Shown in pieces: positions 21,007 to 35,236 of a DNA stretch of 64,000 nt; position 1 is the first letter of the stretch; every line of letters begins with the position of its first letter. Under the pieces are notes generated by a model. It was not told the origin of the DNA, ran no database searches, and was given only the letters and a program-made list of their open reading frames with translations. The translations under genes were made by a program, and so were the position numbers. Origin of the DNA: a virus. The stretch lies in IMG/VR virus record IMGVR_UViG_3300036985_009306, positions 128,144 through 192,143 of that record. One strand, written 5' to 3'.

Positions 21007-21184
21007 ACAATATGATTAAATGATTTACAACCTGATGGTAAGTTTAGTTCTAGTATTAGATTTTGGCTGCACAATTCAAATTGACAAACCACTATCTATA
21101 GATTACTCCTCAATATAGAAAACAATTACCAAAAACTCAATATTGAATGCTGAAATTCCTCTTAAAAAATAAATAAAAAAATAA

Positions 21185-21213
21185 TGTACATTTTAAAAAA
21201 TAAATGATATATT
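21185..21213 (+). promoter_or_regulatory. promoter of tRNA array 1 leader
   Basis: TGTACA-N17-TATATT; identical hexamers and spacing at 31414-31442. Confidence 0.65.
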
Positions 21214-21238
21214 AATGATATACAATAGGAAAAGGACT

Positions 21239-21376
21239 ATGAGACTTCACCTAACTTCATCAAAAAAGATATTATGGCAGCAACTGCCTGATATGGGTGT
21301 CAATAATAACTCCCATAAAACACTGTCATGTTTGTCGAGTCTCTATTTTAAAGTGAGACAAGAAGGTGAAGCTTAA
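21239..21376 (+). CDS. putative attenuator leader peptide of tRNA array 1 (45 aa)
   Basis: MRLHLTSSKKILWQQLPDMGVNNNSHKTLSCLSSLYFKVRQEGEA; AGGAAAAGGA RBS; contains a codon readable by each of the 15 downstream tRNAs. Confidence 0.7.
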   Translation: MRLHLTSSKKILWQQLPDMGVNNNSHKTLSCLSSLYFKVRQEGEA

Positions 21377-21414
21377 AGTTTAAAAAGAAAATATTTTTAA
21401 AAAGGCTCACCTTC
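21362..21414 (+). promoter_or_regulatory. putative antiterminator helix of tRNA array 1
   Basis: GAAGGTGA-A-GCTT (21362-21374) pairs with AGGCTCACCTTC (21403-21414), the 5' arm of the terminator. Confidence 0.65.
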
Positions 21415-21438
21415 AAAAAAAAGAAGATGAGCCTTTTT
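21399..21438 (+). terminator. intrinsic terminator (attenuator) upstream of tRNA array 1
   Basis: AAAAAGGCTCA-C-CTTC-A8-GAAG-A-TGAGCCTTTTT. Confidence 0.8.
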
Positions 21439-21456
21439 GATTTTAGAGATATACTC

Positions 21457-21530
21457 GCCTCAATAACTCAAATGCTTAGAGTACTTGTTTCTTAAACAAG
21501 GAGTTGAAGGTTGAAATCCTTCTTGAGGCA
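21457..21530 (+). tRNA. tRNA-Lys(CTT)
   Basis: Acceptor GCCTCAA/TTGAGGC; anticodon arm CTTGT-TTCTTAA-ACAAG. Confidence 0.85.
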
Positions 21531-21547
21531 AAATAAAGGAGAAACAA

Positions 21548-21620
21548 GCCGCTTTAGCTCAGTTGGTAGAGCAATGGACTGAAAATCCATGTGTCACCCG
21601 TTCAATTCGGGTAGGCGGCA
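21548..21620 (+). tRNA. tRNA-Phe(GAA)
   Basis: Acceptor GCCGCTT/AGGCGGC; ATGGA-CTGAAAA-TCCAT. Confidence 0.92.
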
Positions 21621-21884
21621 TTTTGACTAGAGAAAAATATGTTTGAATGTGAAACAATTTTGAAACAATTGACAAAAAATCCAGATACAGAAATAATTCA
21701 TAATCATCAACAATGTAATTCATATATAGAAAAGATGTTGACTGAACGAGAATTAAAACGTAGATGATCTCGAAGGTGACGAGTTAACTATAAATTTTCG
21801 TACATATAAACCATAGGATGAAATTTTGAATAACAAGAAAGGGACCCGAAATGAACGACAAAGATGGCAAATCTGACAAACTAA

Positions 21885-21973
21885 GGGTCCGTCACTTAGA
21901 GGCCGATAGTACCAAATTTTTAATTTGGAGAGTGACAAAAACTCCATCGCAGGTTCGAATCCTGCCGGGCCCA
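21885..21973 (+). tRNA. tRNA with TTT (Lys) anticodon and long variable arm
   Basis: GGGTCCG/CGGGCCC; CCAAA-TTTTTAA-TTTGG; 20-nt variable region with GAGT/ACTC stem; GCAGG-TTCGAAT-CCTGC. Confidence 0.8.
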
Positions 21974-21993
21974 TTTTAAAAGAGAAAATAATT

Positions 21994-22287
21994 ATGTTTA
22001 AAAAATACACTAAAGAAAATTTATCAACAATGGACAATGGTTTCTATATAATGAAATCAGATCCTAATTCTGAAACAGTGGCCAAAAATCCTAATGATGA
22101 AATTGTTGAACTAATAAATGGTCAAATAATCAATGACATCAAACTTGACATAAGCAATGTAAATTATGAATTAATACAATTAAAAGGAGACTTTAAAAAA
22201 CTTCCACATAATGGTGGAGGACCAATCAAGTTTGAATTAAATGGAAAAATAGTTGATATTGACAATATAAAAAGTTCTTTGAAATAA
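21994..22287 (+). CDS. hypothetical protein within tRNA array
   Basis: ATG 21994; the upstream extension in the ORF track overlaps a tRNA. Confidence 0.6.
   Translation: MFKKYTKENLSTMDNGFYIMKSDPNSETVAKNPNDEIVELINGQIINDIKLDISNVNYELIQLKGDFKKLPHNGGGPIKFELNGKIVDIDNIKSSLK
22273..22284 (+). promoter_or_regulatory. boxA-like antitermination motif
   Basis: AGTTCTTTGAAA; similar copies at 22450-22461 and 23631-23643. Confidence 0.4.
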
Positions 22288-22289
22288 AT

Positions 22290-22362
22290 AGACCCATAGC
22301 TCGTTGGTTCAGAGGCCTTCTTTACAAGTAGAATGTCGGGAGTTCGACTCTCTCTGGGTCTA
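22290..22362 (+). tRNA. tRNA-Val(TAC), imperfect anticodon stem
   Basis: AGACCCA/TGGGTCT; loop TTTACAA; two stem mismatches; T-arm GGGAG-TTCGACT-CTCTC. Confidence 0.7.
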
Positions 22363-22369
22363 AATTTAT

Positions 22370-22442
22370 ACGGACATAGCTCAATGGCTAGAGCAATGGT
22401 CTCCAAAACCATAGGCTGTGGGTTCAAGTCCTACTGTCCGCG
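22370..22442 (+). tRNA. tRNA-Trp(CCA)
   Basis: ATGGT-CTCCAAA-ACCAT; G73. Confidence 0.9.
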
Positions 22443-22449
22443 AAAATTA

Positions 22450-22461
22450 TGTTCTTTGACA
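22450..22461 (+). promoter_or_regulatory. boxA-like antitermination motif
   Basis: TGTTCTTTGACA between tRNA genes. Confidence 0.45.
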
Positions 22462-22491
22462 TACTTGGTTATTTAGCAAGTTTCTTAATTC

Positions 22492-22583
22492 GGAGATTTG
22501 TCCGAGTCTGGCTTAAGGAGCCGCACTGCTAATGCGGTGAAGTTGTTATACAACTTCCAGTGGTTCAAATCCACTAATCTCCG
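22492..22583 (+). tRNA. tRNA-Ser(GCT)
   Basis: GGAGATT/AATCTCC; CCGCA-CTGCTAA-TGCGG; long V-arm; G73. Confidence 0.92.
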
Positions 22584-22599
22584 CTTTTTAAAGAGTTAT

Positions 22600-22685
22600 G
22601 CCCAAATGGTGGAACGCTAGACACGCTGCGCTTAGAACGCAGTATCCGAAAGGGTGTGGGAGTTGAAATCTCTCTTTGGGCACCA
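22600..22685 (+). tRNA. tRNA-Leu(TAG)
   Basis: GCCCAAA/TTTGGGC; CTGCG-CTTAGAA-CGCAG; encoded CCA. Confidence 0.92.
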
Positions 22686-22701
22686 AAAATTAGGAATAAA
22701 C

Positions 22702-23454
22702 ATGACAAAAGAACAAATGTATCAAGACCTTTTGTCTGTTGATACATCAAAACTTGGTTGGATTTCTAAACTTTCAAAAAAATGGCATATGTCACATACA
22801 TGTGCAACTAAGAAAGTGTGTAAATATTTTCCAGAAATTATTGAAAATAGTTATAAAAGAAAGTCAAAAAAGAAATATTGTCCCAAATGTAATTCTTATT
22901 TTCATAAATCATTTTTTAATAAACATAAATGCAAAAACTATTTAGAAAAATATAGGAGAAGCAGAAGAAAACTTCATACAAGAAGATCATTAATCGTTGA
23001 TAAAGACATTCTTGAAAAATCTGTGAGTAAAGCTGAATCATTTAATCAAGTAATAATAGATTTAAAACAACAAAATATTTCTATATCATTTAAAAGACTT
23101 TTCAAACTGATAAAATTTTATGAACTTTCTACTAAACATTTTCTTGGAAAAAGTTCGTTAAAAGCAAGAAAAAAACTTGAAAAAGAAGAATTTATTTTAG
23201 AATGTTTAACAAACAATTCAAAACATGCAGCTTATAATATAAAATCTAAGATTTTGCATTTTGAAATTTTAGAATATATTTGTAATAGCTGTGGACAAAA
23301 TTCTGAATGGAATAATAAAAAACTTGTATTACATTTACATCATAAAAATGGTAATGACAATGACAATAGATTAGATAATCTAGAATTTCTTTGTCCTAAT
23401 TGTCATTCACAAACAGAAACATATTGTAGGTCGAAATCAAAAAAATTGAAATAA
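22702..23454 (+). CDS. HNH homing endonuclease
   Basis: CNSC...LHLHHKNGNDNDNRLDNLEFLCPNCHSQT; ATG 22702 after AGGA. Confidence 0.88.
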   Translation: MTKEQMYQDLLSVDTSKLGWISKLSKKWHMSHTCATKKVCKYFPEIIENSYKRKSKKKYCPKCNSYFHKSFFNKHKCKNYLEKYRRSRRKLHTRRSLIVDKDILEKSVSKAESFNQVIIDLKQQNISISFKRLFKLIKFYELSTKHFLGKSSLKARKKLEKEEFILECLTNNSKHAAYNIKSKILHFEILEYICNSCGQNSEWNNKKLVLHLHHKNGNDNDNRLDNLEFLCPNCHSQTETYCRSKSKKLK

Positions 23455-23467
23455 ATACTAAATTATT

Positions 23468-23541
23468 GGCCGAGTGATGGAAACGGAATACATGCGATAT
23501 TCAAAATATCGATTTTAAGAGTTCAAATCTCTTCTCGGCTA
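23468..23541 (+). tRNA. tRNA-Leu(CAA) lacking the long variable arm
   Basis: GGCCGAG/CTCGGCT; Leu-type D arm; CGATA-TTCAAAA-TATCG; variable region only about 5 nt. Confidence 0.75.
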
Positions 23542-23545
23542 TTAA

Positions 23546-23630
23546 GCCCAAGTGGTGCAATTGGTACCCACAACGGTCTTAAGAACCGTCGAAAGAAATT
23601 TCATTGCCAGTTCAAATCTGGCCTTGGGCA
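23546..23630 (+). tRNA. tRNA-Leu(TAA)
   Basis: GCCCAAG/CTTGGGC; ACGGT-CTTAAGA-ACCGT; V-arm present. Confidence 0.92.
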
Positions 23631-23643
23631 AGTTCTTTGAAAA
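23631..23643 (+). promoter_or_regulatory. boxA-like antitermination motif
   Basis: AGTTCTTTGAAAA directly before the permuted tRNA-like gene. Confidence 0.5.
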
Positions 23644-23644
23644 T

Positions 23645-23790
23645 TAAGTTGTATCCTTTAACACTTAATGCTTACATTAAATTTTGTGGTTCGACTCCAC
23701 ATTCCCCCAATTATGGGGGAATAGCCAAATGGTAAAGGCAATAGACTATAGATCTATCAAAAACAGCATTATCAACTTGGATACAACTTA
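23645..23790 (+). ncRNA. circularly permuted tRNA-Tyr-like RNA (ATA anticodon) with paired termini
   Basis: T-arm and acceptor 3' strand (23685-23709) precede acceptor 5' strand, D arm and anticodon arm (23715-23757); 12-bp and 7-bp terminal inverted repeats. Confidence 0.8.
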
Positions 23791-23796
23791 TTTTAC

Positions 23797-23869
23797 ACTA
23801 ATGTAGCTCAATTGGTAGAGTAATGGGATCATACCCCAGAGGTTAAGAGTTCGAATCTCTTCATTAGTA
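23797..23869 (+). tRNA. tRNA-Met(CAT), initiator-like (could be Ile2)
   Basis: ACTAATG/CATTAGT; three G-C pairs next to the ATCATAC loop. Confidence 0.85.
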
Positions 23870-23918
23870 TTTTAAATTACAAGATTTAGATATATAAACA
23901 ATCTGAGGAGGATTGTTT

Positions 23919-24086
23919 ATGGATAATCTTGAATTAAGAAGGAATGGTAAATTTACATGTTTAGATTGTCAGAATAACAAATCTGAGTTGTGTAAGACAT
24001 GTAAGAATTGGGACCAATTCGATTTAAATGAAGAAGTCTCAAAATTGCTGTATGAAGAAAAGAGTTTAAAGAGAGATAAAAAATAA
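23919..24086 (+). CDS. small Cys-containing hypothetical protein
   Basis: GAGGAGG RBS; CLDC...CKTC; 55 aa. Confidence 0.5.
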   Translation: MDNLELRRNGKFTCLDCQNNKSELCKTCKNWDQFDLNEEVSKLLYEEKSLKRDKK

Positions 24087-24087
24087 C

Positions 24088-24174
24088 GGTGGGATGGCAG
24101 AGTCTGGTTTATCGCACCTCGCTTGAGACGAGGATCTCCGAAAGGGGACGCAAGTTCGAATCTTGCTCTCACCG
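24088..24174 (+). tRNA. tRNA-Ser(TGA)
   Basis: GGTGGGA/TCTCACC; CCTCG-CTTGAGA-CGAGG; V-arm. Confidence 0.92.
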
Positions 24175-24255
24175 CTTAAAATTATGTTAAAAAAATATTT
24201 TTGTTCTATTTGTAATTGGGATTTAACAAATTCTGGTATGAGATATTCAAATTAA

Positions 24256-24350
24256 GGAAGAGTGTCCGAGTTGATCTAAGGAGCTAGTCTCGAAAACTAG
24301 TGAAGGATGAAATAAAGCCTCCGCAGGTTTAAATCCTGTCTCTTCCGCCA
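24256..24350 (+). tRNA. tRNA-Ser(CGA)
   Basis: GGAAGAG/CTCTTCC; CTAGT-CTCGAAA-ACTAG; encoded CCA. Confidence 0.9.
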
Positions 24351-24357
24351 TTATGAT

Positions 24358-24429
24358 GATCCTGTAGCCAAATGGTAAGGTGCTGGTCTGCAAAACCAGA
24401 ATAGGTCGGTCCGATTCCGCCCAGGATCT
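24358..24429 (+). tRNA. tRNA-Cys(GCA)
   Basis: GATCCTG/CAGGATC; CTGGT-CTGCAAA-ACCAG; U73. Confidence 0.9.
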
Positions 24430-24450
24430 TAAAATTAAAAGGGATTAACT

Positions 24451-24681
24451 ATGGAAGACAAAGATTATGTTTTGACAATCAGGGTACCTTTCAAAGCAGC
24501 TGACGATATAGATGCTAGAGAGTATGCTAAGTCTATATTTTCTATAGATTCTCCTAATGGAGTGAACTTAAAATTGCAGGAGATTTTTGTAAATAAAGCA
24601 CCAAGAGGAGTGAATTTTTTGTCCGATTATGAGATTGCAGGATTGTTAAATACAGACAAAGGAAAGAAAACAAGCATGTGA
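24451..24681 (+). CDS. hypothetical protein
   Basis: AAGGGA RBS. Confidence 0.6.
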   Translation: MEDKDYVLTIRVPFKAADDIDAREYAKSIFSIDSPNGVNLKLQEIFVNKAPRGVNFLSDYEIAGLLNTDKGKKTSM

Positions 24682-24784
24682 TAATATTGTTGTTAAAAAC
24701 AACGTGTCTGCTTGGATGAAGAAGTTTTGGATATTGAATGTGTATATGAGAGAGGATTAGACACTTTCTAATGGGAGGCATACT

Positions 24785-25057
24785 ATGTTAGACAAAAGAC
24801 AAGAAGCCGTTTCTATTGCAGAAGAAGTGTTGAACGTTATTCCTAAGGAAGTTACATATAAAGTGCCTGGTCTGACTATGGAGGATATTAAAATTACATA
24901 TAAAGTGCCTGGTCTGACTATGGAGGATATTAAAATTACATATAAAGTGCCTGGTCTGACTATGGAGGATATTAAAATTACATATAAAGTGCCTGGTCTG
25001 ACTATGGAGGATTTAAGTGTTGTTAAAGTTTATGGTGACTGTAGTTTAGATGGCTAA
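24785..25057 (+). CDS. hypothetical protein with 14-aa tandem repeat (3' end overlaps tRNA-His)
   Basis: GGGAGG RBS; TYKVPGLTMEDIKI repeated about 3.8 times. Confidence 0.5.
   Translation: MLDKRQEAVSIAEEVLNVIPKEVTYKVPGLTMEDIKITYKVPGLTMEDIKITYKVPGLTMEDIKITYKVPGLTMEDLSVVKVYGDCSLDG
24852..25012 (+). repeat. 42-bp perfect tandem repeat, 3.8 copies
   Basis: TTACATATAAAGTGCCTGGTCTGACTATGGAGGATATTAAAA; no spacers. Confidence 0.95.
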
Positions 25058-25108
25058 AACATTGCGTTGTGACCGCAAAAATCGGCAGTTCAAGTCTGCT
25101 CAGTCACC
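25034..25108 (+). tRNA. tRNA-His(GTG)
   Basis: G-1, GTGACTG/CAGTCAC, C73; TTGCG-TTGTGAC-CGCAA. Confidence 0.9.
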
Positions 25109-25162
25109 CTCTCATTATGAAAAAATATTATACAGTCTACAAAACTAAGCCGCTAATTTTCT

Positions 25163-25252
25163 GGGTCAGAGGCAACTATCGGGTGTGTTGCGCAAGACTG
25201 TAGATCTTGTCCCGTAGGGTAAACATTGGAGGTTCAACTCCTTCCTGGCCCA
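25163..25252 (+). tRNA. tRNA-Tyr(GTA)
   Basis: GGGTCAG/CTGGCCC; CAAGA-CTGTAGA-TCTTG; V-arm; atypical D arm. Confidence 0.85.
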
Positions 25253-25269
25253 TTTTGGAGAAATTTAAA

Positions 25270-25863
25270 ATGTCATCTGTAATAGTTTTGACCAAAACAT
25301 ATGCATATTGGGGAGAGAGATCTCTTGAAGATGCAATTAGATTGTACTTTCGTGGAAAAGCTGAGATTTTAAAAGCTGATGAAAGTAGATTGATAAAAGC
25401 AGGAATTAATAAAAATGGAATTATATTGAAAATGCCTGCACCTTTAATACTTAGATTGCTTGAATTTACAGGTATTTATCACACAAAAACAAAAATTAAA
25501 TATTCAAAAGAAGCAGTTTGGAAGAGAGATGATAATTATTGTCAATTTTGGCATAGAGATGAAAAAGGAAAAAAGTTTAAATATAAATGCTCACAAGATG
25601 ATAGAACTATAGACCATTTGATTCCTAAAAGTAGAGGTGGAAAACGTAATGACTTTTTAAATTGTGTGACTGCTTGTAGACATTGTAATGAAAAGATTAA
25701 AGGTAACAAAACTCCTTTAGAAGCAGGTCTTATATTAACTAAACTTCCAGAAATACCAAAGTTTAGACGGGGGGATATGATTATACTGACTTTTTCATTT
25801 AATCCTTCAAATAAAGCTCATCAAGCTCTTAGAGAGTTAATCCCTCAATTAATTAAGCTGTGA
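25270..25863 (+). CDS. HNH endonuclease (McrA-like)
   Basis: TIDHLIPKSRGG...NCVTACRHCNEKIKG; ATG 25270 after GGAG. Confidence 0.88.
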   Translation: MSSVIVLTKTYAYWGERSLEDAIRLYFRGKAEILKADESRLIKAGINKNGIILKMPAPLILRLLEFTGIYHTKTKIKYSKEAVWKRDDNYCQFWHRDEKGKKFKYKCSQDDRTIDHLIPKSRGGKRNDFLNCVTACRHCNEKIKGNKTPLEAGLILTKLPEIPKFRRGDMIILTFSFNPSNKAHQALRELIPQLIKL

Positions 25864-25999
25864 GAAGATGATTACATCTACTGGTGTGATATCGAGTTAA
25901 CGACTTCCTGTTTCATAGAAAGAGCTTGACTTTGATGATCTAAAAATAATTTATAAAAACAATTGAAAAGTAGATAGAATATTTTGGCTGTTTTTAGAT

Positions 26000-26218
26000 T
26001 TGATGTCGATAGTCTCTAATATGAGAATTCTAGTTTTACATGGAATATGTGGCGACAGATATTTCTTAATAAAGGATGATGCTCACCTTTTTAGTGTTTG
26101 TATAGCTATTATTAAGGAGAGACTTAATGATGGTTATCGGTATGTTGCTGAAGAGCCTCTTGGATTGACAAAACAACAGATCGATAATCTTCCTTCTGGT
26201 AAAAGGGACATACTATGA
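26000..26218 (+). CDS. hypothetical protein
   Basis: ORF; start uncertain. Confidence 0.45.
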   Translation: MMSIVSNMRILVLHGICGDRYFLIKDDAHLFSVCIAIIKERLNDGYRYVAEEPLGLTKQQIDNLPSGKRDIL

Positions 26219-26403
26219 AAGTCTTTCCATTGGGAACTAAAAGAGAAGAAGAAACACAAATGATTACTATTCGTTTGAAGTGTAATCACAAAGGTTGCAG
26301 AAAAACTATACAAGGAGTTGAAGGATATAACGGTCATTTTTATTATCGTAGAAAATTTGCAGCTGATCTAAGAAATCAAGTATGGGTTTGTGATGAACAT
26401 TAA
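26215..26403 (+). CDS. hypothetical protein
   Basis: Coupled ORF with Cys motifs. Confidence 0.5.
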   Translation: MKVFPLGTKREEETQMITIRLKCNHKGCRKTIQGVEGYNGHFYYRRKFAADLRNQVWVCDEH

Positions 26404-26438
26404 ACAAAGAAGAGTACAATCAATCAGGAGAGTGTAGA

Positions 26439-27215
26439 ATGAAATTCGAGTTTAAACCTTCTCAAAAAGTTCGTCAATTCAAATGTTCTGATTTAATAGG
26501 TAAAATAGTAACAATTTCTTGTGAACATTTGTCAAGTGACAAGAAAAGTCAATATATTCAGGCAAGATCAAAATTACTTTATGATTTTGGAATTTATGGA
26601 GTATCAGATTGGGTGCCTGTACTTGGGAAAAAAGATACAGAAGTAAAGAGAAAAATCATAGGTTGTTGTTTGAAAGAAGCAATGAATGGTGGGAGATGTG
26701 ATAATAAAGAATATTCTTCTTATCAGGATTATTTTAACAAAGACAAAAAAGAAGAAGTCAAAAAGTATTGGATAGGTGGATTGTTGGAAAGAATTGATAG
26801 AGGCGGTGGAGATGCCGATAAAACAAGTCTTATTCTTAGGTTTAAAGATTTTTCTTTAGAGAATAATACTTGGAGTATGACAGCACCTGAAGAATGGTAT
26901 TCTGAGTTGCACCAACTAGAATTTCCACGTGGTTTTTATGAGACTTCAGAAGAGGCAATTAAGTTTTTTGGAGATAAGGCTCATGATGATCTTTTTGGAG
27001 AACGGTATTTCCCTGTAATAGTTTTTCCTAAGGATACAGAGGCTAATGTTAGAGAAATTGCTGGTATGCCTAAGTCATGTTCTAAAGCTATTATGACAAA
27101 AGAATATATTATATTTGGAACTCGTTGCAAATCTTCTGAATATACAGATGTCATTGATAAAACTTATAAAGCAGATGGAAAAGTAGCAAAGTCTAAAGAG
27201 TGGGATTGGGACTGA
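26439..27215 (+). CDS. hypothetical protein
   Basis: AGGAG RBS, 258 aa. Confidence 0.75.
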   Translation: MKFEFKPSQKVRQFKCSDLIGKIVTISCEHLSSDKKSQYIQARSKLLYDFGIYGVSDWVPVLGKKDTEVKRKIIGCCLKEAMNGGRCDNKEYSSYQDYFNKDKKEEVKKYWIGGLLERIDRGGGDADKTSLILRFKDFSLENNTWSMTAPEEWYSELHQLEFPRGFYETSEEAIKFFGDKAHDDLFGERYFPVIVFPKDTEANVREIAGMPKSCSKAIMTKEYIIFGTRCKSSEYTDVIDKTYKADGKVAKSKEWDWD

Positions 27216-27241
27216 GTCCTTCAGTAAGAAAGTGAGATAAT

Positions 27242-27799
27242 GTGAAAGAACAATTTATAGATCCACGAGTGAATATTATCACACATAATTTTATACGAGA
27301 AAAAATTAAAGAAATCCCAGAAGATGTAAACAAGATTTCTAATGAACAATGGGATTGGATTTTAGATTTGACAAAAGATGAAGGTCTTTTAAAACTTGAG
27401 TTTCGATGCAAGATTATTAATAAATTAGGTTTTGGTCATTCTCTTATTTTTAATAAAGAAGCAAATCAACCTATTCTTTGTATAAAGAGAGAGTTTCCAA
27501 AATGGGACAAAAGTATAGGTAAAAATGGTGGATGGTTAGTTTCTGATGAAACTCAAAACAATCCAGAAAAAATAAAAAAAGGTTTTGAAATTATTAGACA
27601 ATATTTAAAACCTATTGAAGAAACAAGTATTGTTTTTGAAGTTTGTGATCTTAAAAAATGTTCATCTGTTTTATTTGTTAGCAAAAGAAATGTAAAACTT
27701 GTAGAAACTGATGAGAAAATTAAAGAATTTAAAAACTTTGGTATATTTATAGATTGGTTGTTTGATCAATACGCTGAACTCATACAAATGAGTGGATAA
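27242..27799 (+). CDS. hypothetical protein
   Basis: 185-aa ORF. Confidence 0.7.
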   Translation: MKEQFIDPRVNIITHNFIREKIKEIPEDVNKISNEQWDWILDLTKDEGLLKLEFRCKIINKLGFGHSLIFNKEANQPILCIKREFPKWDKSIGKNGGWLVSDETQNNPEKIKKGFEIIRQYLKPIEETSIVFEVCDLKKCSSVLFVSKRNVKLVETDEKIKEFKNFGIFIDWLFDQYAELIQMSG

Positions 27800-27814
27800 A
27801 GGAAAGAGAATAAT

Positions 27815-27991
27815 ATGACAGATGAACAAAGAGCTTCTTACATTATATCGCAATCAGTTTGTGCCTTGGCCGAAATAGAATACCCTTTTCGTACTGAATC
27901 TGATTTTCAAGGAGTTGACAAACCAGTTGCGCGTTATTGTAGTTCTGCCGCGAGAAAGGTTAAGGTTCAAAATGAAGTTGACAGAATGTAA
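27815..27991 (+). pseudogene. deleted, chimeric copy of the gene at 55838-56038
   Basis: Near-identical 5' sequence with an in-frame 45-bp deletion, then fused to unrelated GC-richer DNA. Confidence 0.7.
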
Positions 27992-28178
27992 GGTTGGTTG
28001 TCCTCGGCGCGGCAGAAAGAAAATTGTGGAGTTGCCGCAAACAGGCAAACAACAACGCAAGGGCGAAATTTGCCGCTGCGGTAGCAAGAAAGATTGGGAA
28101 CATATTCGTAACTTTGTCGGTTGGTGTAACTTTAATTTTTGTCCCGAATGTGGCGGCAAACTGTCGCCCGTTGCGTAG
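27972..28178 (+). CDS. small zinc-finger hypothetical protein (GC-richer patch)
   Basis: CRCG...FNFCPECGGKL; followed by GTTAGGC. Confidence 0.55.
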   Translation: MKLTECKVGCPRRGRKKIVELPQTGKQQRKGEICRCGSKKDWEHIRNFVGWCNFNFCPECGGKLSPVA

Positions 28179-28278
28179 ACGTTAGGCACAATTGTCAACG
28201 CTTGAGAGCTATAGTTTTTGGGAGCTAAGATGTCAAAGATGAGTATATGGGCATGTAATTGTATTCCTGGTGTGAAAT

Positions 28279-28509
28279 ATGAGATATGATGATGGTGATT
28301 TTTTTCCTTATACTTTATTTGAAATTTGTAGGGTAGGAACGAAAGCTAAACACCAGATTAATGATGTAAGACATTTCAAAGATGAGAAAAAGTTTGTTAA
28401 GGCTGTGCGAGGGGCAAAAATAAAGATAGATCAGAATTATGGGCGTAGAAAAATTAAAAAGTTATTGCAGGAAATTGAAAGAATAGAATATATGTATCAG
28501 TTGAATTAA
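28279..28509 (+). CDS. hypothetical protein
   Basis: ORF. Confidence 0.55.
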   Translation: MRYDDGDFFPYTLFEICRVGTKAKHQINDVRHFKDEKKFVKAVRGAKIKIDQNYGRRKIKKLLQEIERIEYMYQLN

Positions 28510-28640
28510 TAATATTATAAGTAATTTTACAGAAGAATACGTACAAAAAGAAATGTATGATTATTTTGGCATAAAAGAAAATGATAACATATTAAACATA
28601 AATGGAAATATAAATACAGATTTCTTTGAAGGGATTAAAA

Positions 28641-29039
28641 ATGAAAAAGATACCAACCGTTAGTGGAATTGTATCAAAACCTGCTAATGATGAATATAGA
28701 AAAAATTATGACAGGATATTTGGTGAACAACAAGAAATTAAAGAAAAACCAATAATTAAAGAAAAACCAATAAAAAAAGAATTTATAGATTTAATTCCTA
28801 TAAGAAATGATCTTGTTAATATAGAACGTAAACTTCGTAGACTATTGCACCCTTTAGAAAATTGTGGAATACGAGGTTATATAGAATGTAAACTTCGTAG
28901 ACTATTGCACCCTTTAGAAAATTGTGGAATACGAGGTTACACAAGTAAAGAATTCGAGGGATTTCAATGTATTGAGATAGCCCAATCAATTAAATTTCTT
29001 TTATGTAAAATTGATGAACAAAATCACGAGGCAAAATAA
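28641..29039 (+). CDS. hypothetical protein with 20-aa tandem duplication
   Basis: KLRRLLHPLENCGIRGY x2. Confidence 0.6.
   Translation: MKKIPTVSGIVSKPANDEYRKNYDRIFGEQQEIKEKPIIKEKPIKKEFIDLIPIRNDLVNIERKLRRLLHPLENCGIRGYIECKLRRLLHPLENCGIRGYTSKEFEGFQCIEIAQSIKFLLCKIDEQNHEAK
28820..28938 (+). repeat. 60-bp in-frame tandem duplication
   Basis: Two copies with period 60 and one mismatch. Confidence 0.9.
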
Positions 29040-29122
29040 ATCATGGGTAAAAAAGCGTGCTAAGTTGTGATAGGAAGATGAAAAAGCAATAATAATTGAT
29101 TTACCAAGTTTAGGAAAATTAT

Positions 29123-30130
29123 ATGCTTAGAAAACTAGCTTCAATTCGAAAAGTAAGAGACATCAAACCAATAAAAGATGCTGATGCAATTGAACTTGCA
29201 ATTGTTGATGGATGGCAAGTAGTTGTAAAAAAGGGACAATTTAAACTTGATGAACTTGTAGTCTATGTAGAAATAGACTCATTTTTGCCAGAACGCTCAG
29301 AATTCGAGTTTTTAAGAAAAAGCTCACATCGAACAATGGCGGACGGTTCAACAGGATTTAGACTTAAAACTGTTCGTTTGAGAGGACAACTTAGTCAAGG
29401 TTTGATTCTTCCTCTCAATGAAGTCAATCTTTCTAATGTCAATCTGGGTGATGAAGTTACAGAGCAACTGGGAATTAAAAAGTATGAACCACCTATTCCA
29501 GCTTGTCTTGCAGGAGAGATGAGAGGAGCTGTTCCAGGAGAAATTCATAAAAGTGATCAAGAAAGAATTCACAATTTATTAAACTATTGGACAATCTATA
29601 AAGATTTAGAATTTGAAGAAACAGAGAAGCTCAATGGTGCTAGTATGACTGTTTATCACAATCAGGGAGATACCGGAGTTTGTGGCCATAAATGGAATAT
29701 GAAGGAAACTAAGGACAACACCCTTTGGAAGGTCTCTAGAAGGCTCGAATTAACAGAGAGATTAACTAAATTAGGATTGAATCTAGCACTTCAAGGTGAG
29801 ATCATTGGAGAAGGTATTCAATCTAATTGGTACAAAATAATTGGACAAACTTTTAAAATCTATGATATCTGGGATATTGACAATCAGTACTATTTAACAA
29901 ACAAAGAACGATTAGATATCATTCAAAAACTTGGATTTGATCTTTCTATTCACGTACCTATTCTAAATGCTCATATGAAGATTTTTGATATAATTAAAGA
30001 TGTTAATGAATTTTTAGAATATTCAACAGGAATTTCAAAATTAGCCAATGTGCAACGAGAGGGTCTTGTTTATAAATCAACAGAAAGAGTTGGACCTCAA
30101 ACTATTTCTTTTAAAGTATTAAAAGAGTGA
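29123..30130 (+). CDS. RNA ligase (DRB0094/Rnl2-like family)
   Basis: N-terminal RKLASIRKV...GWQVVVKKGQF...EIDSFLP; motif I TEKLNGAS, QGEIIGEGIQ, REGLVYK, SFKV. Confidence 0.88.
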   Translation: MLRKLASIRKVRDIKPIKDADAIELAIVDGWQVVVKKGQFKLDELVVYVEIDSFLPERSEFEFLRKSSHRTMADGSTGFRLKTVRLRGQLSQGLILPLNEVNLSNVNLGDEVTEQLGIKKYEPPIPACLAGEMRGAVPGEIHKSDQERIHNLLNYWTIYKDLEFEETEKLNGASMTVYHNQGDTGVCGHKWNMKETKDNTLWKVSRRLELTERLTKLGLNLALQGEIIGEGIQSNWYKIIGQTFKIYDIWDIDNQYYLTNKERLDIIQKLGFDLSIHVPILNAHMKIFDIIKDVNEFLEYSTGISKLANVQREGLVYKSTERVGPQTISFKVLKE

Positions 30131-30134
30131 TTAT

Positions 30135-30392
30135 ATGACTAAAGAAGAATTTTGTAAAGCTCCCAAAAAGGTAACTATAGTTTTTAATCGAGTAACATCA
30201 AATGAAGAATTAAAAAGACTTTTAGATATGGCAAGTTTGAATGTCGAAAGTTCTATTATGGGTGCTGATTTTAGTACTGTGGAAAATGGTGTTCAAAAGA
30301 GTTGCGGAACGCCTTACATCTTACAACAGGTCGAGTATGCCATGCCGGGGAATCCACAGACGCGAGCTATCCTTGGCAACAAGGGTAGATGA
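30135..30392 (+). CDS. hypothetical protein
   Basis: ORF running into the GC-richer patch. Confidence 0.5.
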   Translation: MTKEEFCKAPKKVTIVFNRVTSNEELKRLLDMASLNVESSIMGADFSTVENGVQKSCGTPYILQQVEYAMPGNPQTRAILGNKGR

Positions 30393-30651
30393 AAAAGGTG
30401 CAGTCCGGTTACAAGTCGGACGTTCCCCGGCACAGCACACGTCGGCCGTTTTCTTTTCTGGTGGAAGGTGTGTGACATTTCCGCTGACATTAGGGAAATT
30501 CGCGCAACGGTCGTACAACAGGCAAAGGAATGCCATAACCTTGACACTATAGAAGTAAAAAATAAATAGCGGTTCGGCAAACGGATGCCGTAACCGCTGC
30601 AAGAAATTTATGTCACTCTGATATTCAGATGTTGGCGCAGGAGAAAACCAA

Positions 30652-30888
30652 ATGCCTAAATTCAGACTTAGAAATTCAGTAGATTGTGAAGAAGAACAGA
30701 TAGTCAATCTTATTAAAGGTACTAACGGGGAACGATTTATAGCAGGTTGGAAAGGTTGCGGTGCTGTAAAATTCAAAGCAAATGATACAGCACTAATTTT
30801 TGAAGTTATGTGTGAAAATAAACCCTATGGTGATGTCGGGGTTACTTGGGAAGAAGATGCGTCAACGGACACTAAAGAAGTGACCTAA
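30652..30888 (+). CDS. hypothetical protein (GC-richer patch)
   Basis: Bounded by GGCGCAGGAGAA (RBS) and ACATCTTACAA motifs. Confidence 0.6.
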   Translation: MPKFRLRNSVDCEEEQIVNLIKGTNGERFIAGWKGCGAVKFKANDTALIFEVMCENKPYGDVGVTWEEDASTDTKEVT

Positions 30889-31413
30889 ACATCTTACAAT
30901 TTGAATAAATAGGTGGGCGCAAAACAAAGGAGTAATTATGTGTATTTTTCACAAGTGGACTAAATGGGAACAGTATACGTTCAACAAGGCTGATAAAGAT
31001 AAGCGTATTGTTGAAGTTGAACGTAGACAGCGCAGGCATTGTTAAGTCTGCGATAGCCGAAGGGTTGCCAATGACAAAATTTGAGCTGATTTCACAATTT
31101 GGAATGAATATTAAATGATAGATATTCATAGTTTAGTAGAAGTTGTGCCGAGTGATGATGTATGTTTGATGATAAGGCTTGGTTGGTTGGCCGAAAGCTG
31201 TAAAATCGTTATGAACAGTCGGACGAGAGTAGGGTGTAAGTAACGTGCCTAAGTAAAAGAATAGCGCTCTGACTATCCCTAAGCCTATTCTTCGCCAAGC
31301 CTATATTATACTATTGCGTATAGGTAAGTCTTTTAGAGAAGTTAAAAAGATGAACAAGTATCGATAAAGATTTTGTGCGATGTCCAGGAATTTGCTGACA
31401 AAGTTAAAAAAAT

Positions 31414-31442
31414 TGTACATTTGCAATAAAATGTATTATATT
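31414..31442 (+). promoter_or_regulatory. promoter of tRNA array 2 leader
   Basis: TGTACA-N17-TATATT, matching 21185-21213. Confidence 0.65.
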
Positions 31443-31451
31443 AGATGCATT

Positions 31452-31517
31452 ATGATAACAAAGCTTTTTCAACAGCCGCAACCACAACCCAAACACCTGA
31501 GGAGTGAAGCCTGTTGA
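31452..31517 (+). CDS. putative Gln/Pro attenuator leader peptide (21 aa)
   Basis: MITKLFQQPQPQPKHLRSEAC; seven consecutive Gln/Pro codons upstream of tRNA-Pro and tRNA-Gln. Confidence 0.75.
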   Translation: MITKLFQQPQPQPKHLRSEAC

Positions 31518-31553
31518 AATAAGTTGATATAGATTTTTCAAAAGGCCTCACTC
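31467..31553 (+). promoter_or_regulatory. protector (1:2) and antiterminator (2:3) helices
   Basis: TTTCAACAG (31467-75) pairs with CTGTTGAAA (31511-19); 31502-31519 pairs with 31536-31553 at 16 of 18 positions. Confidence 0.75.
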
Positions 31554-31577
31554 GAAAGTTTGAGGCTTTTTTGTTTT
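31540..31577 (+). terminator. intrinsic terminator (attenuator) upstream of tRNA array 2
   Basis: AAAAGGCCTCA...TGAGGCTTTTTTGTTTT. Confidence 0.85.
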
Positions 31578-31580
31578 AAA

Positions 31581-31653
31581 CAGGGCGTATTTCAGCTAGT
31601 AGAATTCTTGATTTGGGATCAAGAGGTCGGGAGTGCAAACCTCCCCGCCCTGA
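31581..31653 (+). tRNA. tRNA-Pro(TGG)
   Basis: CAGGGCG/CGCCCTG; CTTGA-TTTGGGA-TCAAG; atypical T loop TGCAAAC. Confidence 0.85.
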
Positions 31654-31659
31654 AATTGA

Positions 31660-31708
31660 CAGGTAGTAGCTCAATTGGTAGAGCACCGCATGAGTCTCTC
31701 CTGCCTGA
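31660..31708 (+). pseudogene. internally deleted tRNA (Pro-like acceptor)
   Basis: CAGGTAG/CTGCCTG acceptor and intact D arm; anticodon and most of the T arm are missing. Confidence 0.7.
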
Positions 31709-31726
31709 ATTTTATAATACAGTTCT

Positions 31727-31802
31727 TGGGTGTGTCTTCCAGTAGGTTTAGGAAACTAGATTTTGAATCTAGCAACCAAGGTTCAAATCCTTGCACACTC
31801 GA
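31727..31802 (+). tRNA. tRNA-Gln(TTG)
   Basis: TGGGTGT/ACACTCG; CTAGA-TTTTGAA-TCTAG; CAAGG-TTCAAAT-CCTTG. Confidence 0.88.
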
Positions 31803-31857
31803 TTTTAATAGTTATGTCGATACTGTCTAAATTTTTGCCAAAATTCAATGATTTGGT

Positions 31858-32064
31858 TCATAGTTCTTCCGAGAATGGGTCTTCTATTTCTTTGACAGCT
31901 TTTATTATATTGATTTGATCAAGTACCGATTGTCTATGTTCATCTAGTATAGAGTGAGTTATTCTTAGAGCTTCTTCATCATGTTCAATTGGTGTCAAAT
32001 CCAATGAAGAACGGATATTGTTTTTGTTGTCAATAGAGATCTGAATTAGAGTTAGTTCTTCCAT
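31858..32064 (-). CDS. hypothetical protein (only credible minus-strand gene)
   Basis: Fills a gap with no + strand ORF; acidic, protein-like. Confidence 0.55.
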   Translation of the reverse strand: MEELTLIQISIDNKNNIRSSLDLTPIEHDEEALRITHSILDEHRQSVLDQINIIKAVKEIEDPFSEEL

Positions 32065-32379
32065 AATGTCCCAATCTAGTTAAGTGTTTCTTTCATTAAA
32101 ATGTTTTTAATTTTATATTATATGGATGCATTTTTAATAAAAAAATAAAAACATGAAAACAGTAGATAAAAGAATAGAAGATATTGTAAAGCATGGATTG
32201 ACAAGTATGATATGTAGTTGGAAGGGATGCACATTTGAATTCGTTCTTAAAAGTGGTAGACGTTTTGTTATGAGCATTCAAGAGTTATTGCTATAGAACA
32301 TAAAAAAGATAACTCGAGCAATTAAATTTATTCTTTTTTAGTGAAATATATTAAAATAGTTCTATAAAGGAGGTAATCA

Positions 32380-32640
32380 ATGGATAAAGAAGTATTGAAA
32401 AAATTTGGTGATATTAAAGAAACAAAACATTATACACAGGTGACTGATAAAAGTAAGAAAAAAGCTCTTATAATGAAGAGAACAATCCATCTTGAAGATG
32501 CTAATAAAATATATTCTTCAAAGATGAGAGAGTTTATGAATGACGAAGTCAAGAAGAGACACATGGGTAAGATTAAATGTATTGTTGGGTATAAAGATGA
32601 AACTGAACTTTTGAAAATATTAGAGATGTATTTTTTGTGA
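32380..32640 (+). CDS. hypothetical protein
   Basis: AAGGAGGT RBS. Confidence 0.7.
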   Translation: MDKEVLKKFGDIKETKHYTQVTDKSKKKALIMKRTIHLEDANKIYSSKMREFMNDEVKKRHMGKIKCIVGYKDETELLKILEMYFL

Positions 32641-32957
32641 AGTCATTGACATTAGAAGAGTTTAATCTTGCAATAAAGTCATTTGTTCCTATTCTTATAG
32701 AGTTTTGGAGTCAATTGTGCACAGCATGTGAGAATGCAGAGCAATATTTAGAGAAATTAGAACTTGTATATAGGGGAAAAATGATTGTCGCAAGAGTTGA
32801 TATAAATAATTTGAGTTTAAATCAGTTAAATGATGTATATTCTATTAATAAGCTACCAACGTTTATTTTGTTTAAAAATTCAATTGAACTTGTCAGAGTT
32901 ACAGGTTTCAGGAATGAAATAGAACTTGAAAAGGCTATTCGTCAATATCTTAAATAA
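32637..32957 (+). CDS. thioredoxin-like protein with shifted CxxC (WSQLCTAC)
   Basis: ILIEFW, VARVDI, KLPTFILFKNS, VTG thioredoxin-fold motifs. Confidence 0.8.
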   Translation: MKSLTLEEFNLAIKSFVPILIEFWSQLCTACENAEQYLEKLELVYRGKMIVARVDINNLSLNQLNDVYSINKLPTFILFKNSIELVRVTGFRNEIELEKAIRQYLK

Positions 32958-32978
32958 AATTTTTAAAAAGGAGAGCAG

Positions 32979-33167
32979 ATGGCTTATAAAATCACAATAC
33001 CCAGGCATGGTAAAAGTGCTGGAGAAGTGACCATAGAATCATTAGATTCTACAAGTTGCAGTGTTGTCCAGGAAGTTTCACAGTATTATGGGCCTGTGAA
33101 AAGCAATACACCCATCCATCATGGAGATGATCAGCCAGTTTTTGATAACGTACATGTTACAGAGTAA
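32979..33167 (+). CDS. DUF2997-like small protein
   Basis: Size, conserved Cys pattern and position before DUF1257-like and Ycf46-like genes. Confidence 0.5.
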   Translation: MAYKITIPRHGKSAGEVTIESLDSTSCSVVQEVSQYYGPVKSNTPIHHGDDQPVFDNVHVTE

Positions 33168-33229
33168 AAATGAAGATTAAAATGCATAGAACAAAAAGAT
33201 CAATAAACATTGAATAGAAAGGTTCAGTC

Positions 33230-33526
33230 ATGTCTAACAAAATAGTCATATCATTTCAAGTTGCGAATATGTTGATCATGGAGGAAACTCTTAAAAAACT
33301 TGGTCATGCATATTCAAAGACAGCAAATGGACTTTCACTAAATCGTGCATATTATCCTATTGAAATTGCAAAAGATGAAATCAGTTGTGATTCAATGCAC
33401 TCACATGAAGTAGAAACAATCAAATGTGAGTACCAAAGAGACTTCCAGATTTACGAACGAACAGTTCGTGGAGAACAATTCGAAGTAACAGAAACAAAGA
33501 ATGAAATAGTAATAACAGTTCATTGA
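33230..33526 (+). CDS. DUF1257/Ycf35-like protein
   Basis: EETLKKLG...EYQR...FEVTE..IVITV pattern and position. Confidence 0.5.
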   Translation: MSNKIVISFQVANMLIMEETLKKLGHAYSKTANGLSLNRAYYPIEIAKDEISCDSMHSHEVETIKCEYQRDFQIYERTVRGEQFEVTETKNEIVITVH

Positions 33527-33595
33527 TTTTTCTTATCATGATCTATTATTAATAGGAAAATAGTGTTTAAAAATAAGATGAAAGTACAAACATAA

Positions 33596-35236
33596 ATGGA
33601 TAAAGCATTAACTCTTAATCTAGATATATTAAGACCTCTTATTCATGTTGTAACAGAAGAAGAGGATAGACTTATAAAAGATATTTATGAAGCAACAAAG
33701 GCTAATTCTCAAATTTTTGTTTATAGAACTACAACAGGCATTGTCAGTTACTCAGACTATGAAAAAGAAGCAGACAAAAAAGAAGATATAGTCAATATAG
33801 GAACAATGCCCATTCATGAAGCTCTTAAAGAAATACAAAAAAATCAATCTACAGAAAAAAGAATCATTTATATTTTGCTTGATATTGATCAGAATCTTCA
33901 AGAAACTCAAGCAACAAATTTTCAGACTATTAGGAAATTAAAAGACATAGTTTTAAATATCTATCATGATTTTACTCATTTAAAATCTATTATTTTGGTT
34001 TCTTCTTCACTTTGTATTCCTCAAAAGCTTCTTAGATATTCTGAAGTTATCTTTTATGATTTACCCAAGGATGATGATATTAATGAAAAAGTAAAATATT
34101 TACTTGATGAATACAACTCGGTATCAGATGAGAAAGTTCCGACTGATGTTCATGAGACTATCAAAAGAGGTCTTAAAGGATTGACTTTGTTTGAAATAGA
34201 ACAAATAGTGATGGGGTCATTAAAGAAAAAGAAAACATTAGCAATAGAAGAAATAAATACATATAAGAAGACAATATTAAAGAAAACAGATCTTCTTGAT
34301 ACAATGGAGACTAATGTAACATTTGATCAAGTTGGTGGGTTAAATAGATTAAAAAATTGGTTAGACAAAAGACAAGAATTATGGTCTGACCATGCAATAA
34401 AACTCAACATTCCTATTGTCAAAGGCGTTCTTATTATCGGGATAACAGGATGTGGCAAATCTTTGACAGCAAAAGCAATTGGTAATCAATGGGGATTGCC
34501 TTTAATTGCTTTTACTCCTAGTAAGATATTTTCACCAAGAGTTGGTGAGAGTGAAATGAGAATAGGAAAGGCTTTTAAAATAATTGAGAGTGCAGCCCCA
34601 TGCGTTGTGATGATAGATGAAATAGAAAAACAATTTGCAGGTAGTCAGAGTTCTACTTTTAGTGATGCTGGAACAACAGCAAGAGTGATTGGTTCATTTT
34701 TGACATGGTATGAAGATTGTACTGCACCTGTTTTTATTGTTGCAACATGTAATAGTATTCAATATTTGCCCCCTGAACTTATAGGTCGTTTTGATGATAA
34801 GTTTTTTGTTCCTTTGCCTTCTATTAATGATAGAGCAGTAATTTACGATATTCATTTAAGAAGATATGGCAGAGATCCTTTAGCTTTAGGAATAAATATT
34901 CAGCAACTTGCTACAAAAAGTCCTTGTTTTACAGGAAGAGAGATAATGCAAGTTGTAAAAGCAGGTTTGATTGAGATGTGGCATGAAATAAGAACTACTG
35001 GTAAGGAAATACAACTTAATCAAGATCATCTTCTTAAGGTTTTAGGTTCTAAAGTCCCAATGCAAAAAACTATGGAAGAAGAGTTAAATTATCTTGTTCA
35101 ATGGGTTGGTTGGGATAAAGAGAAAAATGATGGTATTAGAGCTAATTATGCAAGTGAGAGAGAAGATGACATTGATATGTTGTTTACAGAGATTTTGTCT
35201 AAGGAAAGTGTTTTAGATAAAAACAAAAGAAGATGA
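33596..35236 (+). CDS. Ycf46-like AAA+ ATPase
   Basis: FDQVGGLNRLKNWL, Walker A GITGCGKS, Walker B MIDEIEK, PPELIGRFD, FTGREI. Confidence 0.88.
   Translation: MDKALTLNLDILRPLIHVVTEEEDRLIKDIYEATKANSQIFVYRTTTGIVSYSDYEKEADKKEDIVNIGTMPIHEALKEIQKNQSTEKRIIYILLDIDQNLQETQATNFQTIRKLKDIVLNIYHDFTHLKSIILVSSSLCIPQKLLRYSEVIFYDLPKDDDINEKVKYLLDEYNSVSDEKVPTDVHETIKRGLKGLTLFEIEQIVMGSLKKKKTLAIEEINTYKKTILKKTDLLDTMETNVTFDQVGGLNRLKNWLDKRQELWSDHAIKLNIPIVKGVLIIGITGCGKSLTAKAIGNQWGLPLIAFTPSKIFSPRVGESEMRIGKAFKIIESAAPCVVMIDEIEKQFAGSQSSTFSDAGTTARVIGSFLTWYEDCTAPVFIVATCNSIQYLPPELIGRFDDKFFVPLPSINDRAVIYDIHLRRYGRDPLALGINIQQLATKSPCFTGREIMQVVKAGLIEMWHEIRTTGKEIQLNQDHLLKVLGSKVPMQKTMEEELNYLVQWVGWDKEKNDGIRANYASEREDDIDMLFTEILSKESVLDKNKRR

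Follow-up and report, generated by a model that had tools for sequence, protein, structure and literature searches.

In the enterobacterial leaders trpL, hisL, pheL, leuL, thrL and ilvL, a short promoter-proximal open reading frame (ORF) carries a run of regulatory codons in or next to the first of four RNA segments. The pairings 1:2, 2:3 and 3:4 are mutually exclusive, an intrinsic terminator precedes the structural genes, and the stop codon is placed so that a ribosome finishing the leader masks segment 2. In pheST (pheM) of E. coli, ribosome-mediated attenuation acts on a component of the decoding machinery and not on amino-acid synthesis, and in T-box riboswitches the state of a specific tRNA decides between terminator and antiterminator on genes of the aminoacylation system. 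In its sequence or its proposed mode of action, these systems are resembled by a phage element that is described here, the Gln/Pro leader, which stands directly ahead of tRNA-Pro and tRNA-Gln genes at positions 31414-31802 of the window. By the window is meant the whole 64,000-nucleotide stretch that was analysed, i.e., the last 64 kb (positions 128,144 to 192,143) of the 192,143-bp virus record IMGVR_UViG_3300036985_009306 in IMG/VR, which is roughly 97% complete; it has approx. 30% G+C, and nearly all of its genes lie on the plus strand. It is probable, judging from the sequence and its relatives, that the Gln/Pro leader is a ribosome-mediated (leader-peptide) transcription attenuator that gates the two phage tRNA genes in a codon-specific manner.

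Phage tRNA genes are usually treated as constitutive supplements to codon usage or as spares against host anticodon nucleases, and, to our knowledge, how they are regulated is largely unknown. The full-text literature that was searched (many subscription papers lay outside the search) contained no description of ribosome-mediated attenuation of tRNA genes.

Architecture and alternative folds of the Gln/Pro leader

The promoter (31414-31442, plus strand, as are all window features given below), located from the sequence and by a consensus scan, consists of a -35 box TGTACA (31414-31419), a 17-nt spacer and a -10 box TATATT (31437-31442), and the transcription start is predicted at approx. 31449. 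It matches the sigma-70-like consensus at 9/12 positions. The leader ORF (31452-31517) comprises 21 codons and a TGA stop (31515-31517) that falls inside segment 2, and seven consecutive Gln/Pro codons (QQPQPQP) occupy 31470-31490. Among the 155 long ORFs of the phage (50,419 codons), there is a single run of at least four Gln/Pro residues, and its length is four; the leader contains CCG and CCC, the two Pro codons that the phage uses least (1.9 and 1.8 per thousand). Next comes an intrinsic terminator (31540-31577), in which a stem of 11 bp (31540-31550 with 31561-31571) gives way to a T-run that reaches 31577; a simple terminator scan missed it because its loop exceeds the limit of that scan. 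Only 3 nt separate its end from tRNA-Pro(TGG) (31581-31653; ARAGORN; Rfam, 54.3 bits), behind which lie a degenerate tRNA remnant of 73 nt (31654-31726) and tRNA-Gln(TTG) (31727-31802; ARAGORN; Rfam, 61.4 bits). The order is thus that of a classical attenuator, i.e., an ORF with its own start and stop between promoter and genes, a regulatory run of seven Gln/Pro codons ahead of tRNA-Pro and tRNA-Gln, and an intrinsic terminator before the structural genes.

The RNA can adopt two incompatible structures. Segment 1 (31462-31475), which overlaps the first two Gln codons, pairs in the minimum-energy fold with positions 31511-31525 of segment 2 (31502-31525), whereas positions 31502-31519 of segment 2 can instead pair with segment 3 (31536-31553), the antiterminator partner that includes the terminator 5' arm (31540-31550). 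When the whole leader (31445-31580) is folded, the minimum-energy structure contains the 1:2 hairpin and the terminator (-31.8 kcal/mol, z -2.6). When segment 1 is left out, the 2:3 hairpin (31502-31519 with 31536-53) forms with 16/18 positions paired and absorbs the terminator 5' arm (-20.7 kcal/mol, z -4.6; 0/200 shuffles fold as well), and in the window this antiterminator is more stable than the terminator itself (about -14 kcal/mol). The placement of the codons is likewise that of an attenuator, taking the established size of the ribosome footprint: the first codons of the Gln/Pro run lie in segment 1, 11 nt separate its last codon from segment 2, and the stop codon falls within segment 2.

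Most of this arrangement had been proposed in a preliminary description made from the sequence alone. The promoter, the 21-codon ORF with its QQPQPQP run, the terminator, tRNA-Pro(TGG) and tRNA-Gln(TTG) were all found where it had placed them (sequence, ARAGORN, Rfam). Its boundaries for segments 1, 2 and 3 and its count of 16/18 pairs are correct, and the folding that it had suggested, with and without segment 1, gave the 1:2 hairpin plus terminator by default and the 2:3 hairpin upon removal of segment 1. Its Pro-like tRNA remnant stands in part. The remnant includes a stretch of a tRNA D-arm, is not an intact tRNA and goes undetected by both ARAGORN and Rfam; its Pro identity is plausible only, since the 20-nt stretch that is identical to the tRNA-Pro of one relative (L142) also matches other tRNAs.

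The extended promoter motif precedes every tRNA leader in G000, G001 and G002 (the last two being relatives introduced below). In the whole 192-kb genome, it occurs at the two tRNA leaders (31414 and 21185) and, as one weak variant, inside a tRNA array, and nowhere else; the motif is private to tRNA leaders. Several other readings of the same nucleotides were considered and set aside. A Bacteroidota-type promoter (TAnnTTTG, 31416-23) was dropped because it is the sigma-70-like motif that is conserved and because the genes show Shine-Dalgarno enrichment (AGGA in 37% of phage gene upstream regions vs. 6.5% of background). A longer in-frame ORF of 45 amino acids from the ATG at 31380 was rejected, as it would start upstream of the conserved promoter. 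An overlapping ORF of 20 codons in another frame (31445-31507) is open only in the window and in L011, has no start in the other members, and is probably incidental.

Conservation in related phages

Contigs of relatives were gathered through homologs of the adjoining AAA ATPase (33596-35236), of which there are many in metagenomes (62-83% identity), and through a scan of IMG/VR with an ATPase alignment. Five further related loci with a Gln/Pro leader were obtained in this way: L007, a 424-kb contig that is also found in IMG/VR (G001) and, as L008, in a GenBank metagenome-assembled genome (MAG); L011; L135, a 194.6-kb record (G002); L139; and L142, the leader stretch of which is identical to that of L143. 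There are four distinct leader sequences among these five loci, their neighbouring ATPases are 72-79% identical to that of the window, and in all five of them tRNA-Pro and tRNA-Gln lie upstream of a conserved thioredoxin-ATPase block. The window and these loci together make six homologs with five distinct leader sequences, all from one phage clade.

All five further loci display the promoter motif, an ATG-started short ORF with a Gln/Pro run, segment 2, segment 3 and the terminator, followed by tRNA-Pro/tRNA-Gln. In every homolog, the stop codon stands at, in or directly before segment 2, and the terminator ends 3-20 nt before the first tRNA. Within the run, the members differ mostly by synonymous third-position changes (CAA/CAG, CCG/CCA), whereas downstream of it the nucleotides are conserved and the reading frame differs between members. 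This indicates that the run is maintained as codons and the remainder as RNA, and the predominance of synonymous substitutions is also what argues that the leader is translated. Shine-Dalgarno sites (AAGGA) are present in the L135, L139 and L142 leaders; the window leader, which has none, would have to be translated from a nearly leaderless mRNA. The leader was seen only where Pro/Gln tRNAs follow, and it was not found in the relatives whose syntenic flank has no such tRNAs (L006, L010, L137, L138, L141 and L158-L161). The preliminary description had proposed that homologous loci be examined for the Gln/Pro run and the 2:3 complementarity; both are kept in all five further loci, which supports the attenuator reading. 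As a candidate attenuator, the locus is real, conserved and matched in its codons to the tRNAs behind it.

The mutually exclusive 1:2, 2:3 and 3:4 pairings are seen in the folds and pair counts of the window and of the six homologs as a set. Each homolog folds a 1:2 hairpin (-15.7 to -21 kcal/mol) and a 2:3 hairpin (-15.6 to -22.4 kcal/mol, z -2.1 to -4.7) in which the entire 5' arm of the terminator is engaged, the latter hairpin lying far beyond shuffles in five of the six. Pair counts were made on a model-based alignment of the six homologs (A5), with slid-partner controls. For 1:2 plus terminator, 92.4% of cells are paired (controls, 42-54%) with four compensatory pairs; taken alone, the 1:2 helix has 85% of cells paired and one compensatory pair, and the terminator helix 97% and three. 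For the 2:3 helix, the figure is 88.5% (controls, 25-64%) with two compensatory pairs, but the column-wise count of its distal part is weakened, as two subgroups pair in registers shifted by two columns, and per-sequence folding is the better measure. The most telling change is that in L011: column 68 of segment 2 has gone from A to G, and its partners in column 8 (segment 1) and column 91 (segment 3) have each gone from U to C, the pattern to be expected from selection on both alternative helices. Another A-to-G in segment 2, seen in L135 and L142, keeps its pair with segment 1 through a U-to-C there and stands as a G-U with segment 3; the segment-1 match was read from the sequences, since A5 places both rows one column off at this point, and the G-U was counted on A5.

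As a separate observation, the leaders of L135 (3391-3469) and L142 (5660-5732) are nearly identical, and quite different tRNA-Pro(TGG) sequences stand behind them, which suggests replacement of the tRNA gene behind a conserved leader.

Other searches did not enlarge this set. Positions 31000-32100 had no similar DNA among GenBank phages, the exact leader pattern had no match in IMG/VR, and an ATPase profile found no relative among GTDB genomes. Sister-leader and segment-2 patterns in IMG/VR returned only the two known relatives, the other eight matches being coding false positives. The degenerate Gln/Pro-run pattern gave at least 120 matches in metagenome contigs, which were then screened for segment 2; the sole new matches to survive, L083 and L131, are coding-like, lack a terminator or Pro/Gln tRNA motif and were taken as false positives, and the sole IMG/VR match to a pattern of the same kind, L013, is a coding false positive. 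The anticodon-arm pattern of tRNA-Pro led to three unrelated phages of higher G+C content that have the arm in common by chance. Among sequencing runs, the stretch was matched by two DNA runs, of which one is probably the sample that the record came from, and by no RNA run. With regard to the host, L008 (GCA_028717785.1, JAQUND010000010.1) is a 50-kb contig, identical here to the 424-kb phage, in a MAG labelled Candidatus Nanoarchaeia archaeon; it looks like a wrongly binned bacterial phage, given its sigma-70-like promoters, Shine-Dalgarno sites and intrinsic terminators.

Codon-tRNA correspondence and the sister leaders

The correspondence between leader codons and the tRNAs behind them is closest in the 424-kb relative. 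At the place that corresponds to the Pro-remnant-Gln array of the window, this phage has six tRNAs (Pro TGG, Gln CTG, Pro CGG, Pro GGG, Arg CCT and Gln TTG), and the nine-codon run of its leader includes an exact Watson-Crick codon for each (CCA, CAG, CCG, CCC, AGG and CAA). Compared with 50,000 equal-length windows from the phage's own genes, the standard against which all cognate-codon p values were obtained, both the number of cognate codons (9/23) and the number of anticodons covered (6/6) are exceptional (each p < 2e-5). The Gln/Pro leader of G002 has 8/19 cognate codons (p < 2e-5) and that of the window 6/20 (p = 0.0014). AGG directly follows the run only in the member with tRNA-Arg(CCT); the others have AGA or AAA at this place, and in the window an AGG lies four codons past the run.

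The phages' other tRNA arrays also have leaders. Weaker matches of a covariance model built from the Gln/Pro leaders (R1) lie directly before these arrays, at 21319-21445 of the window (26.9 bits), at 184620-184726 of G001, and at 145198-145307 and 147843-147973 of G002; the relatives' paralogous leaders lie on the minus strand of the corresponding loci (G002: L151 1501-1670 and L149 1501-1690; G001: L148 1501-1705). Each of these sister leaders has the promoter of the Gln/Pro leader, a Shine-Dalgarno site, an ORF of 33-47 codons, a long-range 1:2 helix, a 2:3 alternative (z -2.0 to -7.4) and a terminator. The window's sister module (21185-21444) comprises the promoter (21185-21213), the Shine-Dalgarno site, a 45-codon ORF (21239-21376), segment 2 (21364-21372) and the terminator (21400-21444), with a long-range 1:2 helix (fold z -6.6) and a 2:3 alternative; tRNA-Lys comes next, at 21457, at the head of a large array that extends to 25253.

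The codons of the sister leaders, too, correspond to the tRNAs that follow. The anticodons of the array are covered 15/15 in the window (p = 0.0006) and 17/17 in G001 (p < 2e-5). The G001 sister leader contains the string Phe-Tyr-Leu(CTT)-Lys-Lys-Arg-His-Lys before His, Tyr, Lys, Phe, Leu(GAG) and Lys tRNAs, and also has GTA and ACG codons, which match its Val(TAC) and Thr(CGT) tRNAs. In G002, tRNA-His and tRNA-Met stand behind a leader that has two internal Met codons and five His codons, four of them closely spaced and the fifth some way off, and the next leader ends in Tyr-Phe-Lys-Lys codons and is followed by tRNA-Tyr, Lys, Phe and Lys. The mechanism of these long leaders is less settled than that of the Gln/Pro leader; one possibility is that queued ribosomes could keep segment 1 masked when the stall occurs deep in the ORF.

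Three further observations concern the large arrays. Rfam finds a tRNA at 22290-22362 of the window (39.2 bits) that ARAGORN missed; its anticodon loop reads TAC, which suggests a tRNA-Val(TAC), present in relatives at the same place of the array. The motif GTTCTTTGAA (GTTCTTTGAC at window 22454) resembles the boxA antitermination site of rrn operons. It occurs after attenuator terminators in relatives (L007 1787-1796; on the minus strand, L148 approx. 1480-1489 and L151 approx. 1485-1494) and between tRNAs in the window array (22454-22463 and 23633-23642), and it is absent directly after the window's two attenuator terminators. Finally, a unit of approx. 44 nt is repeated in about four tandem copies within a small ORF just upstream of tRNA-His (window 24850-25010).

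Proposed regulation, alternatives and relation to known systems

It is reasonable to assume that transcription would start at the dedicated sigma-70-like promoter and that the 21-codon ORF would be the first element of the transcript. With no ribosome on it, segment 1 would pair with segment 2, the terminator (3:4) would form, and transcription would stop at approx. 31572-31577, just before tRNA-Pro. A fast ribosome would come to stand at the stop codon in segment 2 and mask that segment, so that the terminator would form as well. A slow ribosome, by comparison, would stay on the Gln/Pro codons (31470-31490), cover segment 1 and leave segment 2 free; the freed segment would pair with segment 3 as it emerges, the terminator would be blocked, and the polymerase would enter the tRNA genes. 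More tRNA-Pro and tRNA-Gln would then remove the signal of slow decoding. Because the products of the operon are the very molecules needed to read its leader, such a circuit would let the supply of Gln- and Pro-decoding tRNAs limit itself by direct negative feedback, and, from the geometry of the leader, read-through should rise only when Gln/Pro decoding is slow. Both stalling at these codons and its effect on read-through are predicted from the sequence. The natural trigger might be a poor host tRNA pool, cleavage of tRNAs by host defence, or starvation.

The sole pointer to the trigger is a neighbouring gene. An RNA ligase gene (29123-30130; phrog_968, E 2e-76; its L139 homolog is PF09414) lies 1.3 kb upstream of the Gln/Pro leader, and the relatives' contigs have other RNA-end or tRNA-related genes nearby (Thg1, RlaP). 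These genes could point to a context of tRNA repair, and the ligase is compatible with tRNA damage but does not demonstrate it. The approx. 1.3 kb between ligase and leader (30135-31400) has a G+C content of approx. 38%, higher than its surroundings; no convincing plus-strand ORF and no Rfam match was found there.

Extended to the clade as a whole (phages of 190-424 kb), we lean towards the view that all tRNA operons stand behind the private promoter and codon-matched leader-peptide attenuators, that leader codons follow the gain, loss and movement of tRNA genes, and that ribosome speed sets tRNA synthesis. If so, these phages would possess a self-correcting circuit of tRNA supply, which could also detect depletion or cleavage of host tRNAs.

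Several points weigh against codon-specific attenuation. The window leader has no Shine-Dalgarno site and its ATG lies 9 nt after the -10 box, L011 has no clear Shine-Dalgarno site, and in L007, which also lacks one, the ATG lies 6 nt after the -10 box; from these distances, the mRNAs of the window and of L007 would be leaderless or nearly so. The L139 run is interrupted by one Leu codon. If the stall occurs on the last Pro codon, much of segment 1 would remain uncovered. Covariation is thin (four and two compensatory pairs from five distinct leaders of one clade), related sequences can exceed shuffle controls without any structure, and the counts are therefore supportive and not decisive. The relatives have a terminator (-20 to -22 kcal/mol) that equals or exceeds the 2:3 hairpin in stability, and their whole RNA with the first 40 nt masked keeps the terminator at equilibrium; antitermination there must thus rest on the order of transcription. 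An exact match at the codon level is found only in the 424-kb relative, and the window leader keeps CCG, CCC and CAG though only Pro(TGG) and Gln(TTG) genes remain. These leftover codons, together with the tRNA remnant, suggest descent from a larger array, and the remnant (31654-31726) is probably what is left of an ancestral Pro/Gln/Arg array. Termination, read-through and leader translation are all predicted, not observed.

The alternatives differ mainly in what they make of the codons. The switch might be real and dependent on translation and nonetheless sense general translation capacity or coupling, or a slowly made proline-rich peptide might serve as a fixed delay. Peptide-bond formation with proline is slow, Gln and Pro alternate in the run of every member, and segment 1 of the sister leaders lies at the very start of the ORF, so that any loading of ribosomes affects the 1:2 helix. 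A general sensor, however, does not need codons that track tRNAs, and the leader codons do change with the tRNA set behind them (the six-isoacceptor match, including AGG and tRNA-Arg(CCT); His/Met; Tyr-Phe-Lys-Lys); moreover, the runs lack consecutive prolines, the classical stalling motif. Such a sensor is thus unlikely.

It is quite improbable that the unit is simply a small early gene of the ordinary kind, equipped with a promoter and a terminator of its own, the tRNAs being transcribed by leakage or from upstream and the pairings having no regulatory role. Units of a short ORF and a terminator are common in phage early regions, and the window copy, with no Shine-Dalgarno site and a promoter that scores only 9/12 in the consensus scan, could be taken for one of them. 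However, the peptide is not conserved outside the Gln/Pro run, where the frame differs; the 2:3 hairpin exceeds shuffles by far in 5/6 homologs; one segment-2 change is compensated in both partner segments; the unit was never found without cognate tRNAs; and the 3-20 nt between terminator and first tRNA leave no room for a separate promoter. The conserved RNA structure and the weak initiation signals of two members would also suit an untranslated switch set by a protein or by direct, T-box-like binding of tRNA, with the ORF incidental. This appears very unlikely, as every member opens its ORF with an ATG and closes it in frame at segment 2, a Shine-Dalgarno site is present in three, most differences within the run are synonymous changes at third positions, and the element, at approx. 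120 nt, is far shorter than a T-box and matches no Rfam family, T-box included.

If codon-specific attenuation is confirmed, the locus would represent the shortest possible feedback loop on decoding capacity, in which the sensor codons are read by the controlled tRNAs, and a mechanism known from textbooks for amino-acid supply would be found to serve the supply of tRNAs as well. The long-standing question of when and why phages need tRNAs of their own would become testable, since each leader tells which codons the phage monitors, and the relatives offer natural comparisons (two vs. six tRNAs; a separate His/Met operon with its own leader). In synthetic biology, the compact module of 130 nt could also report the speed of translation at specific codons.

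Among known systems, T-box riboswitches are similar in outcome and different in means. They bind uncharged tRNA directly, require no translation, are approx. 200 nt or longer and have conserved motifs, whereas the phage leader has a conserved, codon-matched ORF. A scan of 20000-34000 against Rfam at E up to 1 placed neither a T-box nor any other cis-regulatory family at the leader (the only overlapping hit, a minus-strand match to SNORA30 at 31411-31517, with 26.1 bits vs. a gathering score of 90, was taken as chance), and by its sequence the leader is not a T-box. The pheST attenuator is closer in mechanism, but it controls phenylalanyl-tRNA synthetase and not a tRNA gene, is cellular and responds to a single amino acid. 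The closest likeness is to the enterobacterial leaders, among which the multivalent thr and ilv leaders resemble the mixed Gln/Pro run and the many-codon sister leaders. Unlike these, the element is found in a phage, the mRNA of two members is nearly leaderless, and there is no sequence homology, nor would any be expected. The genes behind the leader encode tRNAs instead of enzymes, so that the sensed molecule would itself be the product and the feedback would have one step instead of a pathway. The Gln/Pro leader is best classed as a candidate case in which attenuation of the classical type serves a new class of regulated gene, with a self-referential logic.

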